64,000 nucleotides of DNA from NCBI GenBank assembly GCA_024279945.1, contig JAJRRA010000071.1, positions 2,171 to 66,170 of the forward strand, given 5' to 3'. The stretch comes from Gammaproteobacteria bacterium (lineage in GTDB: Bacteria > Pseudomonadota > Gammaproteobacteria > Xanthomonadales > SZUA-36). The number at the start of each line of letters is the position of its first letter. Position 1 is the stretch's first letter. Made by a program: the position numbers and the translations under genes. This document shows positions 20,478-36,728 of this stretch, piece by piece. The notes below the pieces were generated by a model that saw nothing but the letters and a program-made list of their open reading frames with translations, was not told where the DNA came from and made no database searches.

Positions 20478-20668
20478 GAAAACCCTCCGTGGGGCCGCTA
20501 CGGGCCGGTGACCTTGAACCAAGTGGTCCAGGTGGGGCGGCTTACGAGGTTTCAGGCTTTTCGCTAAAAGCGAACATGCACACCACACTCAGATCAACCA
20601 CCCCGAGGTCGGTAAATAGGGACAAGGCATCTATCGGTCCCGTTGGCAAACACCACAGAGGGCAAGAC
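20478..20668 (-). ncRNA. ssrS: 6S RNA
   Basis: Located between zapA and ygfA on the same strand, as in E. coli. The closing stem is CCCUCUGUGG (about 20661-20652) with CCACGGAGGG (20492-20483). The 3' half contains CACUUGGUUCAAGGU, resembling E. coli CCUUGAACCAAGGGUUCAAGGGU. The 5' half contains GGUGGUUGA...GCAUG, like E. coli GGUUGGUGAGCAUG. Ends are +/- 10 nt. Confidence 0.7.
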
Positions 20669-31865: not shown

Positions 31866-32617
31866 GCAACGCAGAACTGAATCTGTGCATTCCCAAGCCA
31901 GGCCAGGCATGGAATTCGTCCCAACTGGCGGCGGTCAATCCCTGTCTCGAGCGCATGAGCGCGGTGGAACGTGTGCAGTGGTCACTGGACTACCTGCCGC
32001 AGCAGCACATACTCAGCTCGAGTTTCGGGGCACAGTCCGCAGTGATGCTACACCTGTTGAGCCGTTTTGAACGCAGGATTCCCGTGATCGTGATCGACAC
32101 CGGATACCTGTTTCCGGAAACCTATCAATTCATCGATCAGATGGTTGAACGACTGAATGTTGATCTGAGGGTGTATCGGCCGCTTATCAGCCCCGTGTGG
32201 CAGGAGAATCGCTTTGGCAAGCTGTGGGAGGCAGGCGTGGAGGGTATTCGCCGCTACAACCGGATGAACAAGGTTGAGCCCATGAGCCGGGCGTTGAAGG
32301 AACTGGATGTGGGCACGTGGTTCAGCGGCCTGCGGCGCAGCCAGTCAGATTCGCGTCGCCGGATCAGTGTATTGCAACACCAAGGCCGGGCCGTGAAAGT
32401 TCATCCCATCGCTGACTGGAGCAACCGTGATGTGCACCGTTATCTCAAGCAACATGATCTGCCGTACCACCCCTTGTGGGAGCAAGGTTATGTTTCGATC
32501 GGTGATGTCCATACCAGTCAGCCTCTCGGTGCAAAAATGGAAGAACAGGACACCCGTTTTTTCGGCCTGATGAGGGAATGCGGCCTGCACGAAGTGGAAA
32601 ACTTTCAGGAAGTGTAG
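31862..32617 (+). CDS. cysH: phosphoadenosine phosphosulfate (PAPS)-type sulfate-assimilation reductase
   Basis: 251-aa ORF with ATGA overlap with cysI. C-terminal ECGLHE motif. No CC...CxxC iron-sulfur motif, so it is PAPS-reductase-like rather than APS-reductase-like. Confidence 0.85.
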   Translation: MSNAELNLCIPKPGQAWNSSQLAAVNPCLERMSAVERVQWSLDYLPQQHILSSSFGAQSAVMLHLLSRFERRIPVIVIDTGYLFPETYQFIDQMVERLNVDLRVYRPLISPVWQENRFGKLWEAGVEGIRRYNRMNKVEPMSRALKELDVGTWFSGLRRSQSDSRRRISVLQHQGRAVKVHPIADWSNRDVHRYLKQHDLPYHPLWEQGYVSIGDVHTSQPLGAKMEEQDTRFFGLMRECGLHEVENFQEV

Positions 32618-32621
32618 CGTT

Positions 32622-33632
32622 TCAGATTCCTGAGGGGTGTATACCTGCATGGCCGTTCAGTCCATGAGGTGAACGATAGGGAGCGATGGTATGGTTATCC
32701 ACTGCATCCCCGACAGTAGAGATCACCCGGTCAATCTGTTCGCGGTCGATACCCGGCACCATCAGTTGCAGGAAGCTGTACATGTAATTGCGCAGGAAGC
32801 GGTCGCGGCGGAAGCCGATCCAGGTCGTGCAACTCGGGATCAGGTGGGCTGCGTTGATCGCCACCAGCCCGGCATCCTGGATGGGGTCGTACGCCATGCA
32901 GGCAACGATTCCAATGCCCATGCCCTTGCGCACATAGGTCTTGATCACATCCGGATCTTCAGCGGTGAACACGACATTCGGTTCAATTCCAGCGTCCCTG
33001 AACGCGTTGGCCTGGTCTGAATCTGAATCAAAACTGTGGGTGTAGCTGATGATGGGGTACCGCGCGAGGTCTTTGAGGCTGACATCCTTTTGCCGGGCCA
33101 GGGGATGATCCGGCAGAACCAGAATGGTTCTTTCCCAGTGATAAATGGGAAAAGTCACCAGGTCCTCAAACAGTTCGCTCTGACCGGAGGCGATGGCGAA
33201 ATCGGCTTCCTGGTCCTGCACCTGGTGTGCGATGCGGTCGGAAGTGCCCTGGTGCAGGCTGATCGAGATACCCGGGAATTCGCGGTGGAATCCGGCCAGC
33301 AAATCCGGCAGCACGTAGCGTGCCTGGGTATGTGTGGTGGCAACCACCAGTTTACCCCGCTTCTGACCCGCCAACTCATGCGACATGGATTTGATGTTAT
33401 CGACTTCGGTCAGGATCTTTCGCGCCTTTTCAATAACTTCTCTACCGGCTTCGGTGAGGCCGGAAAGGCTTTTTCCTTTTCGTACAAACAGTTGCAGGGA
33501 TAATTCATCCTCCAGCATCTTCACCTGTTTGCTTACGCCGGGTTGAGAAGTGAATAAGGCCTGGGATGCCGCCGTGATATTCAGACCGTTGTCCACGATG
33601 GCAACGAGGTAACGCAGTTGTTGCAATTTCAT
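32622..33632 (-). CDS. cysB: LysR-family regulator of the CysB/Cbl family
   Basis: 336-aa ORF. MKLQQLRYLVAIVDNGLNITAASQALFTSQPGVSKQVKMLEDEL and TTHTQARYVLP, DVIKTYVR, IGFRRDRFLRNYMYSF read nearly collinear with E. coli CysB. AAGAGG Shine-Dalgarno upstream. Confidence 0.8.
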   Translation of the reverse strand: MKLQQLRYLVAIVDNGLNITAASQALFTSQPGVSKQVKMLEDELSLQLFVRKGKSLSGLTEAGREVIEKARKILTEVDNIKSMSHELAGQKRGKLVVATTHTQARYVLPDLLAGFHREFPGISISLHQGTSDRIAHQVQDQEADFAIASGQSELFEDLVTFPIYHWERTILVLPDHPLARQKDVSLKDLARYPIISYTHSFDSDSDQANAFRDAGIEPNVVFTAEDPDVIKTYVRKGMGIGIVACMAYDPIQDAGLVAINAAHLIPSCTTWIGFRRDRFLRNYMYSFLQLMVPGIDREQIDRVISTVGDAVDNHTIAPYRSPHGLNGHAGIHPSGI

Positions 33633-33686
33633 TTTCTCTGCCTCTTGTTTGTTTGGCTGTTTTTCCTCAGCTAAAATATCCAGACC

Positions 33687-33714
33687 AAAAAAAACCGCCG
33701 GTAGGCGGTGGTTT
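33687..33714 (-). terminator. rho-independent terminator about 55 nt upstream of the cysB-family start codon, same strand
   Basis: Minus strand reads AAACC-ACCGCC-UACC-GGCGGU-UUUUUUU: 6-bp GC-rich stem, tetraloop, run of 8 U. Confidence 0.7.
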
Positions 33715-33740
33715 CATCAAAATACGGTAAAAAAATCAGG

Positions 33741-33800
33741 ACTACACCACGCGCCTCCGGGTTTGCGGACAGTTACAACATTTGCACATGTTGGTGTAGT
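33741..33800 (-). promoter_or_regulatory. alternative-pairing segments 1 and 2 of a candidate attenuator
   Basis: ACUACACCA (33800-33792) and UGGUGUAGU (33749-33741) form a perfect 9-bp pairing. GGCGCGUGGU (33755-33746) can instead pair with ACCACCGCC (33712-33704, the terminator left arm) with one bulged C. Confidence 0.5.
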
Positions 33801-33807
33801 GGTTCAT
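33742..33807 (-). CDS. candidate leader peptide MNHYTNMCKCCNCPQTRRRVV (4 Cys in 6 consecutive codons)
   Basis: ATG AAC CAC TAC ACC AAC ATG TGC AAA TGT TGT AAC TGT CCG CAA ACC CGG AGG CGC GTG GTG TAG, read on the minus strand. The stop codon lies inside pairing segment 2. Only a weak Shine-Dalgarno (AAAGA). A second in-frame ATG lies directly before the Cys run. Confidence 0.45.
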   Translation of the reverse strand: MNHYTNMCKCCNCPQTRRRVV

Positions 33808-34089
33808 CGCGTATCTTTGTTTATCTGAGTTGCCAGCATAGTATTGTAACCGAGCCGAATCAAGCACTAATTCTTCGCCGGGCGATATAACGCTGCGGTA
33901 TAAAGGCAGAAAGAATCCGTATTTCCGCAGTTCGGGCGTGGCTATTATGATTAACCCGCATATCGCACCCACATCACAGTGGGGTTCAATATTGGACAGG
34001 TAGACACGCCGGGGAGTAACCTCAATGGGCTCAACCCAAAACAGATATCAACAGGCTCCAGGGAAAACGGGCCTCAATAAGGAAACGAC

Positions 34090-35055
34090 ATGATTTTCAA
34101 CAATATTCTCGAGACCATTGGAAAAACACCCGTTATTAAAATCAACAAGCTGGCGCCGGAAGGTATCGACATCTATGTCAAGGCGGAAGCATTCAACCCG
34201 ATGAGTTCGGTCAAGGACCGTCTGGCTCTGGGGATTATTCTCGATGCAGAAAAAAGAGGCGTCCTGAAGCCGGGGCAGACCGTAATCGAGGCCACTTCGG
34301 GCAATACCGGGATCGCGCTGGCTATGGTATGCGCCGTACGTGGCTATCCTTTCGTGTCCGTCATGGCAGAGTCGTTCTCTGTTGAGCGGCGCCGGCTGAT
34401 GCGTTTCATGGGTGCCACGCTGGTTTTGACGCCGGCGGCTGAGCGTGCTTCAGGCATGGTCAGGGCCGCTGAAGCCCTGGCCGAAAAGCATGGCTGGTTC
34501 CTGACGCAGCAGTTCGAGAATGAAGCTAACCCTGCCTTCCATCGCAATACCACCGGGCCTGAAATACTCAGCGATTTCGCTGATCGAAAACTGGATTACT
34601 ACGTCAGCGGTTATGGAACCGGTGGAACGATTACCGGCACGGGGCAAATGATCAAGCTGGCGCGCCCGGATGTAAAAATCATTTCGACCGAGCCGGCGAT
34701 CGCCGCCCTGCTGGAAGGTGATGATTGGCAACCGCATAAAATCCAGGGCTGGACACCTGATTTCATCCCCGAAGTCCTGGATCGCAGCGTGGTGGACGAA
34801 AATATTCCGGTGACCGATGAGGAGGCGATTGAAGCCTCGCAGGCGCTGGCGCAGAAAGAGGGAATTTTCTGTGGAATTTCTTCGGGTGGCACGTTCGCTG
34901 CAGCAGTCAAGGTAGCGGAAAAGGCTGAGCGCGGGTCAGTGGTTCTGGCCATGTTGCCGGATACCGGAGAGCGCTACCTGTCTACTCCCCTGTTTGAGAA
35001 TATCGCGGACGGTCCGGATGAAGGACAGGATTTGCTGGAAGGCCTGGAGTACTGA
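34090..35055 (+). CDS. cysK: cysteine synthase A (O-acetylserine sulfhydrylase)
   Basis: 321-aa ORF. PLP-lysine motif NPMSSVKDR, plus TSGNTGIALA and GTGGTITG motifs. Confidence 0.9.
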   Translation: MIFNNILETIGKTPVIKINKLAPEGIDIYVKAEAFNPMSSVKDRLALGIILDAEKRGVLKPGQTVIEATSGNTGIALAMVCAVRGYPFVSVMAESFSVERRRLMRFMGATLVLTPAAERASGMVRAAEALAEKHGWFLTQQFENEANPAFHRNTTGPEILSDFADRKLDYYVSGYGTGGTITGTGQMIKLARPDVKIISTEPAIAALLEGDDWQPHKIQGWTPDFIPEVLDRSVVDENIPVTDEEAIEASQALAQKEGIFCGISSGGTFAAAVKVAEKAERGSVVLAMLPDTGERYLSTPLFENIADGPDEGQDLLEGLEY

Positions 35056-35082: not shown

Positions 35083-35985
35083 TCAGGGTTTCAGCAGATC
35101 TGGCGGCAGGTCTCTGAAACAAGCGGCCAGTTCGCACAGAAAATCTGACAGTGCTGAGCTATTTCGCCAGACCATTGCAATGGTGCGGCTGGGCGCCGGA
35201 CTGGCAAAGCGTCTGGTGGTCAGGTTGCTGGTCTGTGCAATGGGCGGCTTTACCGACAACAGGGGCATCAGTGTTATACCGACGTTAGCAGCCACCATCT
35301 GGCGCAGGGTTTCCATGCTGGTGGCGTGGAAGTCCACTCGCTCATGGGCGCCCGCCAGGGCGCATACTTCCAGAGCGTGCTCCCGCAGACAGTGGCCATC
35401 ATCCAGTAGCAACAGTTCACTGCCATTGAGGTCATCAAGGGTGATCCGGTCTTTTGCCCCCAGCGGGTGCGTATCCGGCACGGCCAGCACGAAGGGTTCT
35501 TCGAACAGAATTTCCATATCCAGGCCATCATCATTAATCGGCAAGGCCAGTAGGGCGGCGTCGAGTTCACCCTGTTGCAACATTTTGAGGATGTCTTCGG
35601 TCTTTTCTTCTGCCAGTTGTAATTTCAGGTTGGGATATCGCTTGCGAATCGTTGGAATGACATGCGGGAGAAGATAAGGAGCCAAAGTAGGAAACAACCC
35701 CAGTCGCAGGTTTCCATCCGCCGGATCTCCTGCGCGTCTGGCGACGGCGCGTATCTGGTCAACATCGCTGAGGACCAGGCGGGCGCGCTCCGCGATCTCC
35801 TGACCTACCGGCGTCAGCATGATTTTCCTCGGTGAGCGCTCGACCAGTTGCACGCCCAACTCGTCTTCCAGCTTCCTGATCTGCGTGCTGAGCGTCGGCT
35901 GACTGACAAAACAGGCTTCGGCCGCCTTACTGAAATGCCTGAGGTCGGAAAGTTTTACAAAGTATTGGAATGCTCTGAGATTCAT
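35083..35985 (-). CDS. oxyR: hydrogen-peroxide-sensing LysR-family regulator OxyR
   Basis: I prefer ATG 35985 (MNLRAFQYFVKLSDLRHFSKAAEACFVSQPTLSTQIRKLEDELGV), 300 aa. Redox Cys pair context LLLLDDGHCLREHALEVC matches E. coli MLMLEDGHCLRDQAMGFC. Confidence 0.85.
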   Translation of the reverse strand: MNLRAFQYFVKLSDLRHFSKAAEACFVSQPTLSTQIRKLEDELGVQLVERSPRKIMLTPVGQEIAERARLVLSDVDQIRAVARRAGDPADGNLRLGLFPTLAPYLLPHVIPTIRKRYPNLKLQLAEEKTEDILKMLQQGELDAALLALPINDDGLDMEILFEEPFVLAVPDTHPLGAKDRITLDDLNGSELLLLDDGHCLREHALEVCALAGAHERVDFHATSMETLRQMVAANVGITLMPLLSVKPPIAQTSNLTTRRFASPAPSRTIAMVWRNSSALSDFLCELAACFRDLPPDLLKP

Positions 35986-36041
35986 AGTGTCCATTATATA
36001 GATTGATTCAATTCTTTGAGGCTTTTTAATTGAAAATACCA

Positions 36042-36728
36042 ATGAATAATACTACGGGGCTACACATTTTTCCCGCCGCTGCCGGGCTACTGGTCAAAAT
36101 CCTGACTCTGGTTATCCTGCTGCTTGCACCAATATTTTTGCAGGCACATGAAGTTACTTTCCCGGACATGGAAACACTGAATCGCTTACGTCTCGGGGAG
36201 ATTGTGACTGCACCGGTACGAGTTGACGAAGAAGGGGTTGCGATCAAAGCAAGCCTGATGATTAGGGCGCCAGTGGAGGATATTTGGGCAACCGTGTATT
36301 CCTGTGAGTACGCTTTTATATTTCTGGACGGGCTGGAAGTTTGTGAGGTTCCTGAAGATGACGGTGTGGACACCGTGACACATCAAATCATAAATGAGGG
36401 CTGGCCCGTGGGCCGGCAGGAGTATACATTCTGGACGCATCGCGCGCCATATACCCGAGCCGATATTCGAATGGTTGAAGGCAAAATGAAATTCATGCAT
36501 GCCGGTTGGGACTATATCAAGTTGCCGGATTCGGTCGTTGTTACCTACACGGTTCGGCTCAAGCCCAATTTCCCGATACCACAATTCCTGCTGCGACACT
36601 CCTTGAAAAGTGGCATGATCGAGCTACTGGCTTGCGTGCGGGGACTGGTTGGCGGGTCAGGGAATGTTGGACAGGAAGAGGAAGATCTGGGTCGCTGCCC
36701 CGGCGACATCGAACGGGTCGCCAGATAA
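36042..36728 (+). CDS. exported or membrane-anchored SRPBCC (START/Bet v1-like) superfamily protein
   Basis: Track start 36030 is TTG. ATG 36042 gives MNNTTGLHIFPAAAGLLVKILTLVILLLAPIFLQA. APVEDIWATVYSCEYAFIFLDGLEVCEV and the C-terminal pattern resemble polyketide-cyclase/SRPBCC folds. Weak call. Confidence 0.45.
   Translation: MNNTTGLHIFPAAAGLLVKILTLVILLLAPIFLQAHEVTFPDMETLNRLRLGEIVTAPVRVDEEGVAIKASLMIRAPVEDIWATVYSCEYAFIFLDGLEVCEVPEDDGVDTVTHQIINEGWPVGRQEYTFWTHRAPYTRADIRMVEGKMKFMHAGWDYIKLPDSVVVTYTVRLKPNFPIPQFLLRHSLKSGMIELLACVRGLVGGSGNVGQEEEDLGRCPGDIERVAR

Follow-up and report, generated by a model that had tools for sequence, protein, structure and literature searches.

A candidate cysteine-codon transcription attenuator upstream of a CysB-type regulator gene in Gammaproteobacteria

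In the 64,000-nt stretch of Gammaproteobacteria contig JAJRRA010000071.1 analyzed here (the window, within which all positions are counted), a 457-nt gap separates two divergent genes, a CysB-type LysR regulator on the minus strand and cysK on the plus strand (34090-35055). Inside this gap, on the minus strand, lies a leader element (33684-33819) that carries a short, Cys-codon-rich upstream open reading frame (uORF) followed by an intrinsic terminator. A gene-end terminator is not needed between divergent genes, which favors a leader role. A preliminary description of the locus proposed a Cys uORF coupled to mutually exclusive antiterminator and terminator helices ahead of the CysB-family gene, and our comparison of 24 leaders supports this core claim. 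From conservation and folding models, we consider it probable (roughly 75%) that the element is a ribosome-mediated leader-peptide transcription attenuator that reads charged tRNA-Cys and sets how much mRNA for the CysB-type regulator is completed. The sequence elements, their conservation, the covariation of the antiterminator, and the behavior of the models are direct observations and are presented first.

The leader element and its conservation

Read directly from the minus strand, which holds all leader features given below, the uORF comprises 21 codons plus TAG (33807-33742; ATG at 33807, TAG at 33744-33742) and encodes MNHYTNMCKCCNCPQTRRRVV. Four putative regulatory Cys codons fall between 33786 and 33769, namely a TGC (33786-33784) and three TGT codons (33780-33778, 33777-33775, and 33771-33769), with codons 11 and 13 forming a core C-x-C motif. 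Both the frame and its four Cys codons are exactly as first described. Clusters of at least four Cys codons in six occur at five places in the six frames of the window, and the uORF is the only one outside a gene; the others (at 2287, 12873, 19368, and 60083) lie within genes or long open reading frames, the one at 2287 being out of frame.

Downstream of the uORF, the intrinsic terminator (33709-33687; segments 3 and 4) reads ACCGCC-UACC-GGCGGU plus a U-run, with eight U in total and a folding energy of −10.2 kcal/mol. Its earlier placement was exact, and a terminator scan returned the same site. The unconstrained minimum free energy (MFE) fold of 33850-33630 chooses a helix between CCGGAGGCGCGUGGU (33760-33746; segment 2, the antiterminator 5′ arm) and ACCACCGCCUACCGG (33712-33698; segment 3, the antiterminator 3′ arm), which RNAalifold also gives as the consensus structure. 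Segment 2 is made up of the last uORF codons, with the stop codon 1 nt further, and segment 3 holds the terminator 5′ arm, the terminator loop, and 2 nt of the terminator 3′ arm. The antiterminator therefore sequesters the loop and part of the 3′ arm in addition to the 5′ arm. The pairing first proposed, GGCGCGUGGU (33755-33746) with ACCACCGCC (33712-33704), is exact as far as it extends, but the helix is longer, at 15-16 bp.

The regulator protein was searched against reference genomes and metagenomes, and together with four look-ups of more distant homologues this gave ~45 orthologous loci. Homologous leaders were found in 24 cases, all located 5′ of orthologous CysB-type regulators that are 71-88% identical. 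Their sources are uncultured Gammaproteobacteria and the cultured Elongatibacter sediminis (Wenzhouxiangellaceae), whose leader lies at 1313-1426 of locus L057, within JAZHOG010000011.1:63199-67227; the other named relatives are metagenome-assembled genomes labeled Lysobacterales, Wenzhouxiangellaceae, or Oceanospirillales. A covariance model (R1) built from 19 leaders recovers 24/24 with E = 3e-10 to 1e-35 and matches the window at 33684-33819 with 121 bits (E = 4e-27). R1 has no other match in ~250 kb (~50 loci), and the element is single copy in the 64-kb window. Conservation before orthologous regulators, which the preliminary description had left to comparison, extends to the uORF, the terminator, and a compensated antiterminator in 24/24 leaders, whereas the upstream segment 1 discussed below is limited to one clade. 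On this comparison the element is far beyond chance through its conservation in 24 orthologous loci; the single sequence alone is not.

The pattern of conservation within the uORF is uneven. All 24 leaders contain a homologous uORF with 2-5 Cys per ~21 codons, and most have Cys codons in addition to the core. Of these leaders, 23 carry the C-x-C core, in most cases as C-x-C-P, and the remaining one, L003, has an adjacent CC. At the first core Cys codon (core Cys1), 16 leaders have TGT and 7 have TGC; the second (core Cys2) is TGT in all 24. From core Cys2 to the stop codon the distance is exactly 27 nt in 22/24 leaders, and the U-run ends 49-62 nt past the stop. The N-terminal half of the peptide is unrelated across lineages (MNHYTNM, MKRKENVLV, MHQSDPRK, MHPSFGND, (M)FETTGTYR, and MNQGKPTQTGGKLTTF), and over the 5′ half of the alignment nearly all columns that are invariant or close to it coincide with the Cys codons or with the bases immediately following. 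At the C-terminal end, the G-R-V-V codons coincide with the antiterminator 5′ arm and the stop codon adjoins that arm; these codons are conserved as nucleotides (GGGCGCGUGGU) because they form the arm.

The two helices are conserved in different ways. A CCGCC/GGCGG terminator stem with a U-run occurs in 24/24 leaders at −9 to −17 kcal/mol; the stem is near-invariant and hence shows no covariation, which makes a covariation test uninformative in either direction. For the antiterminator, 85.6% of cells in the 24-sequence alignment are paired, compared with 39-59% when the partner columns are slid. Compensatory changes affect seven pairs, against 3.8 ± 1.0 in shuffles (2/500 shuffles reach 7), and the observed covariation score is reached by 0/500 shuffles. 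This alignment was fitted to the covariance model, so its pair counts lean towards the structure, but an independent MAFFT alignment of 19 sequences agrees, with 85.1% of cells paired and five compensatory pairs. The inner antiterminator helix is paired in 92% of cells, and four of the five outer pairs show compensatory changes. It is the outer helix, formed by uORF codons with the terminator loop and 3′ arm, that carries these changes; L030, for instance, has CCUC:GAGG where most leaders have GCCGG:CCGGC.

A neighbor-joining tree of the regulators places the window in a clade of 20 loci, all with the leader. The sister clade is patchy, retaining the leader in L040, L057, and L004/L037/L038 and lacking it in ~17 loci. 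The leader core is common to both clades, and the simplest reading is therefore an ancestral element with several losses.

The predicted leader promoter (33863-33835) consists of a −35 TTGATT (33863-33858), a 17-nt spacer, and a −10 TATGCT (33840-33835), which would place the transcription start near 33828-33830. It is identified by conservation: in most leader loci, TTGxxx-17-TATGCT (or TATTCT) precedes the uORF start by 23-30 nt. A consensus promoter scan detected none, TTGATT-17-TATGCT being too weak for the scanner. The TACAAT (33848-33843) initially suggested as the −10 is present but falls within the spacer of this conserved promoter. Upstream of the −35 is a conserved LysR-type box, GAAATACGGATTCTTTCTGCC...TTATACC-N5-GTTATATCG (33925-33883), that occurs once in the window with 0 expected. 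Its general form, GAAATACG(G/C)ATTCTTTCTGCC..TTATAxCC-N5-GTTATATCG, precedes most orthologues with or without a leader and is probably a CysB autoregulatory site. At leader-less loci a TATAAT −10 directly follows the box, whereas at leader loci the −35 lies ~60 nt from the box start.

Ribosome position and competing explanations

In the Yanofsky model, stalling of the ribosome exposes the antiterminator 5′ arm, whereas arrival of the ribosome at the stop codon masks it. The classical attenuator model is summarized in 10.1101/834739. Applied to this leader, transcription would begin at the TTGATT-17-TATGCT promoter below the LysR-type box, and a ribosome translating the 21-codon uORF would report Cys-tRNA charging. 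With Cys-tRNA plentiful, the ribosome would reach the TAG at 33744-33742 and cover segment 2 (33760-33746), the hairpin at 33709-33694 and its U-run would form, and RNA polymerase would stop at ~33687, 54 nt before the regulator ATG. With Cys-tRNA scarce, the ribosome would stall at the Cys codons (33786-33769) with its 3′ edge just short of segment 2. The free segment 2 could then pair with 33712-33698, forming a far more stable helix into which the terminator 5′ arm, the loop, and part of the 3′ arm are drawn, and polymerase would read through so that more regulator is made. Within this scheme, we infer the transcription start, translation of the uORF, stalling, termination efficiency, and the response to cysteine.

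The scheme was modeled by folding each leader up to the terminator stem with the ribosome footprint kept single-stranded, either for the whole RNA or for the downstream part only. With the ribosome at the stop codon, the terminator formed in 24/24 leaders. With the ribosome at the first Cys codon or at core Cys1, the antiterminator formed in 18-19/24 (whole-RNA) or 22/24 (downstream-only). At core Cys2, the downstream-only model gave the antiterminator in 21/24 leaders, or in 16/24 with a footprint 2 nt longer. The state energies are −20 to −39 kcal/mol for the antiterminator and −9 to −17 kcal/mol for the terminator. The previously proposed attenuator geometry, in which stalling frees segment 2 and the stop codon masks it, is thus reproduced in most leaders by constrained folds. 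The inner antiterminator helix starts ~13-14 nt past the first base of core Cys2; the fixed 27-nt spacing may be explained by this start coinciding approximately with the 3′ edge of a ribosome that holds core Cys2 in its A site.

Several observations weigh against attenuation by Cys-tRNA. In the whole-RNA model, a core Cys2 stall yields the antiterminator in only 6/24 leaders and mostly the terminator; we attribute this low count to helices enclosing the ribosome, which the whole-RNA model permits, and the downstream-only model differs. The most diverged leaders, L040 and L057, do not switch in the models. Ribosome-free RNA folds to the antiterminator in 10/24 models, while that of the window folds as 1:2 plus terminator; a superattenuated default state like that of trp may therefore hold for the window but not for leaders in general. 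Only two Cys codons are found in four of the leaders, and core Cys2 with the next two bases (TGTCC) is near-invariant as nucleotides, so that part of this constraint could act on the RNA instead of on codon identity. The uORF Shine-Dalgarno of the window is poor (AAAGA), as already recognized in the preliminary description; several relatives have better ones, with AAGGAGG-N6-GUG in Elongatibacter and GGAG in L004, L038, and L054. Loss of the leader in ~17 related loci indicates that it is dispensable. Single-sequence statistics add little: whole-leader folding of the window has z = −0.53 against shuffles, an uninformative value of the kind that an RNA with two states should give, and the 700 nt scanned hold one terminator-like site where shuffled sequence would give 0.9, which is no more than chance.

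The upstream part of the leader also counts on this side. Segment 1, ACUACACCA (33800-33792), is a candidate anti-antiterminator or pause-hairpin arm, and its proposed pairing with UGGUGUAGU (33749-33741) is indeed a perfect 9 bp, but it is conserved only in the window's MNHYTN clade. Across the alignment, 76% of 1:2 cells are paired, mostly in one clade and with weak covariation, and the duplex energy is no better than in dinucleotide shuffles of the upstream part (z = −1.65 for the window, −2.6 to +1.5 overall). Given these pair counts and shuffle-level energies, the 1:2 helix was rejected as an established part of the element and kept as a possible one. The U7 run that follows the 1:2 hairpin (33735-33729), to which the preliminary description had drawn attention, is particular to the window; relatives carry CAGUCAUAUUUAC in its place, and the run is probably not functional.

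Could the uORF instead be an independent small gene? It would then encode a Cys-rich micropeptide (C-x-C-P, e.g., metal- or redox-active) or belong to a dual-function small RNA with its own terminator, with the regulator expressed separately or by incidental read-through. Conservation of C-x-C-P is good, the P being kept in most leaders, and the unit has its own promoter and terminator. In addition, PMC6614838 and PMC7298713 describe Sinorhizobium attenuator RNAs and leader peptides able to act in trans. Most of the comparative evidence runs the other way. The peptide lacks conservation in its N-terminal half, its C-terminal G-R-V-V is accounted for by antiterminator nucleotides, and the stop codon always adjoins segment 2. 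The leader peptides have no meaningful family match in Pfam or NCBIfam and no exact match in a collection of 15 billion proteins, where they are not called as genes. Furthermore, six loci (L003, L030, L033, L053, L054, and L055) have a U-run that stops 9-15 nt short of the regulator ATG and abuts its GGAG. These loci have no room for a separate promoter, and the regulator is therefore transcribed there only via terminator read-through. The window itself has a gap of 54 nt from U-run to regulator ATG, which may conceal an internal promoter. We judge the small-gene explanation unlikely, and a role in trans could coexist with attenuation.

A second alternative accepts the switch and replaces the controller: in place of Cys-tRNA, the outcome would be set by an RNA ligand (protein or small molecule), by overall translation efficiency, or by arrest of a nascent C-x-C-P peptide in response to sulfide, metal, or redox state. 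The near-invariant TGTCC nucleotides, the leaders with only two Cys codons, and the conserved antiterminator-loop bases UUUGAUC would all fit such a controller. Attenuators with uORFs that respond to general translation stress also exist, whiB7 being the example cited in 10.1101/834739. Against this, the gated gene is the activator of the cysteine regulon, which makes Cys codons the parsimonious sensor, and codon identity is favored by the TGT/TGC swaps at core Cys1 and by the further Cys codons that most leaders carry. In Rfam, neither a riboswitch nor any other family fits the element: scans at permissive and at gathering thresholds, run on the window's leader and on 10 related loci, found nothing relevant, the best sub-threshold hit being asX2 at 18 bits versus a gathering score of 70. 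A controller other than Cys-tRNA thus seems improbable. Finally, chance co-occurrence of the uORF, hairpins, and U-run with no regulatory function would suit the unremarkable single-sequence statistics, but it is effectively refuted by conservation in 24 loci down to 71% regulator identity, the fixed spacing, the compensatory changes in the antiterminator, and covariance-model matches (E = 3e-10 to 1e-35) at this position only.

Relation to known attenuators

Leader-peptide attenuation in Proteobacteria is known for Trp, His, Leu, Thr, Ile/Val, and Phe. Like the enterobacterial trpL, hisL, leuL, thrL, ilvL, and pheL leaders, the element presented here combines a uORF containing codons for the predicted end product, a U-run terminator, and an exclusive antiterminator. 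It differs in that cysteine would be sensed, in that the Cys codons are few and interspersed (a C-x-C core, 2-5 in total), and in that the gated gene encodes a transcription factor of the CysB type, whereas the enterobacterial leaders gate biosynthetic operons. Conservation of a 1:2 anti-antiterminator could also not be demonstrated. Neither sequence nor structure matches any Rfam leader family, Trp_leader, His_leader, Leu_leader, and Thr_leader included. Every testable sequence-level feature that defines leader-peptide attenuators is present, except for the 1:2 hairpin.

In Firmicutes, T-box (tRNA-Cys) and S-box/SAM leaders of cysteine and methionine genes follow the same logic, with early termination in the leader that is lifted once the sulfur amino acid or its charged tRNA runs low. 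T-box and S-box RNAs bind tRNA or SAM directly through large conserved folds, with no translation, and the present element has no such fold or Rfam match. The whiB7 leader of Mycobacterium responds to general translation stress and not to one amino acid. As cited in 10.1101/834739, it likewise uses a uORF-dependent intrinsic terminator to gate a transcription-factor gene; it belongs to another phylum and has no sequence relation to the element. The S-box literature is cited in PMC1262725.

Two actinobacterial systems share the amino acid. In mycobacteria, Cys codons of upstream polycysteine small open reading frames (sORFs) sense cysteine supply and control cysteine-related genes, and by its authors' account uORF attenuation for cysteine was previously undescribed (Canestrari et al. 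2020, 10.1101/834739). That system is translational: the mRNA is leaderless, the consecutive Cys codons pair with a downstream Shine-Dalgarno, and there is no intrinsic terminator (10.1101/834739). By contrast, the gammaproteobacterial element is situated in a 5′ UTR, has a U-run terminator and an antiterminator, and shares no homology with the sORFs. Measured against the published description, it is further set apart by its uORF, which begins ~23 nt downstream of the predicted transcription start, and by its Cys region, which is unpaired with the regulator Shine-Dalgarno (33646-33641) in the MFE fold. In the cys and cbs operons of Actinobacteria, leader ORFs with runs of Cys codons near the stop have been predicted (Seliverstov et al. 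2005, PMC1262725). Those leaders have no terminator hairpins, and Rho-dependent termination was proposed for them (PMC1262725), whereas all components of an intrinsic-terminator attenuator are present here.

In the open-access literature we found no account of Cys-codon attenuation, either in Proteobacteria or ahead of cysB, nor a report of a terminator-based cysteine attenuator, in agreement with the earlier suggestion that the element may be undescribed. The mycobacterial translational type would be the only characterized cysteine uORF system. With less assurance than we attach to attenuation itself, we favor the broader view that this is the first classical Cys-tRNA leader-peptide attenuator with an intrinsic terminator and antiterminator, that it gates the master activator of the cys regulon rather than a biosynthetic operon, and that it is ancestral to a family-level gammaproteobacterial clade (Wenzhouxiangellaceae relatives) and was repeatedly lost. 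Judged from sequence comparison, the novel parts would be the amino acid sensed and the gating of a master regulator. The activity of enterobacterial CysB is set by N-acetylserine, sulfide, and thiosulfate. The attenuator would add end-product sensing to this effector control, giving a two-tier feedback in which Cys-tRNA charging sets the level of CysB and the CysB effectors set its activity. If the reading is true, classical attenuation is extended to cysteine, and annotators gain a model (24 sequences and one covariance model) for an element so far missed by gene callers and by Rfam. Its presence in the cultured Elongatibacter sediminis makes the element directly testable.

The regulator, its neighbors, and related loci

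The gated gene (33632-32622, minus strand; ATG at 33632, Shine-Dalgarno AAGAGG at 33646-33641) encodes a 336-aa LysR-type protein. Its best NCBIfam match is the CysB equivalog at 403 bits, under the cutoff of 436. Against the solved CysB structures 1al3 and 4gwo, it scores E ~1e-101 over residues 1-305, compared with 9e-47 for Cbl, and its gene neighbors are cysJ(?)IH and cysK. These matches leave little doubt about the family of the protein, but they do not establish strict equivalence with E. coli CysB. The cysI and cysH genes lie just downstream of the regulator and converge with it, cysH (plus strand) ending at 32617 and the regulator at 32622, with 4 nt between the stop codons (32617-32622).

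The genes around the leader are not constant. The divergent neighbor of the regulator is cysK in the window (34090-35055) and a siroheme synthase (cysG-like) in L053, L054, L055, and L057 (1-1150 in these loci). Downstream, cysH-cysI is kept in L054, L055, and L057, and L053 has another gene. Since the divergent neighbor varies among leader loci, the leader travels with the regulator and not with that neighbor. At L050, a complete leader (1325-1458) is followed by a tblastn match that begins at regulator residue 204, which may reflect an assembly artefact or a rearranged gene.

Some leader-less loci have features of their own. L035 and L036 retain TTTGTCATTTTG at approximately −100 to −60 before the regulator ATG, near a TATGCT −10; the same sequence is the U-run tail of the L004/L037/L038 terminator, and the remnant looks like a deletion scar from leader loss. 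In L006 (~2330-2440) and L008 (~2340-2415), the 5′ UTR contains three to four consecutive hairpins in place of the Cys leader, with the regulator ATG at 2501. These hairpins are GCGGCAC..GUGCCGC, then CAUUUUCAAUGA..UCAUUGAAAAUG, then GCGAAGCAAAA..UUUUGCUUCGC; the third hairpin of L008, GCCAAACAAAAA..UUUUUUGUUUGGC, is a compensatory difference. The L006 hairpin element had no significant match in Rfam.

Two further features of the window lie outside the gap. Directly downstream of cysK, on the opposite strand, is an OxyR-like LysR regulator (35083-36042, minus strand; NCBIfam OxyR 310 bits, cutoff 329). A 6S/SsrS RNA gene is found at 20480-20664 on the minus strand (Rfam RF00013, 94.6 bits, E = 2e-17).

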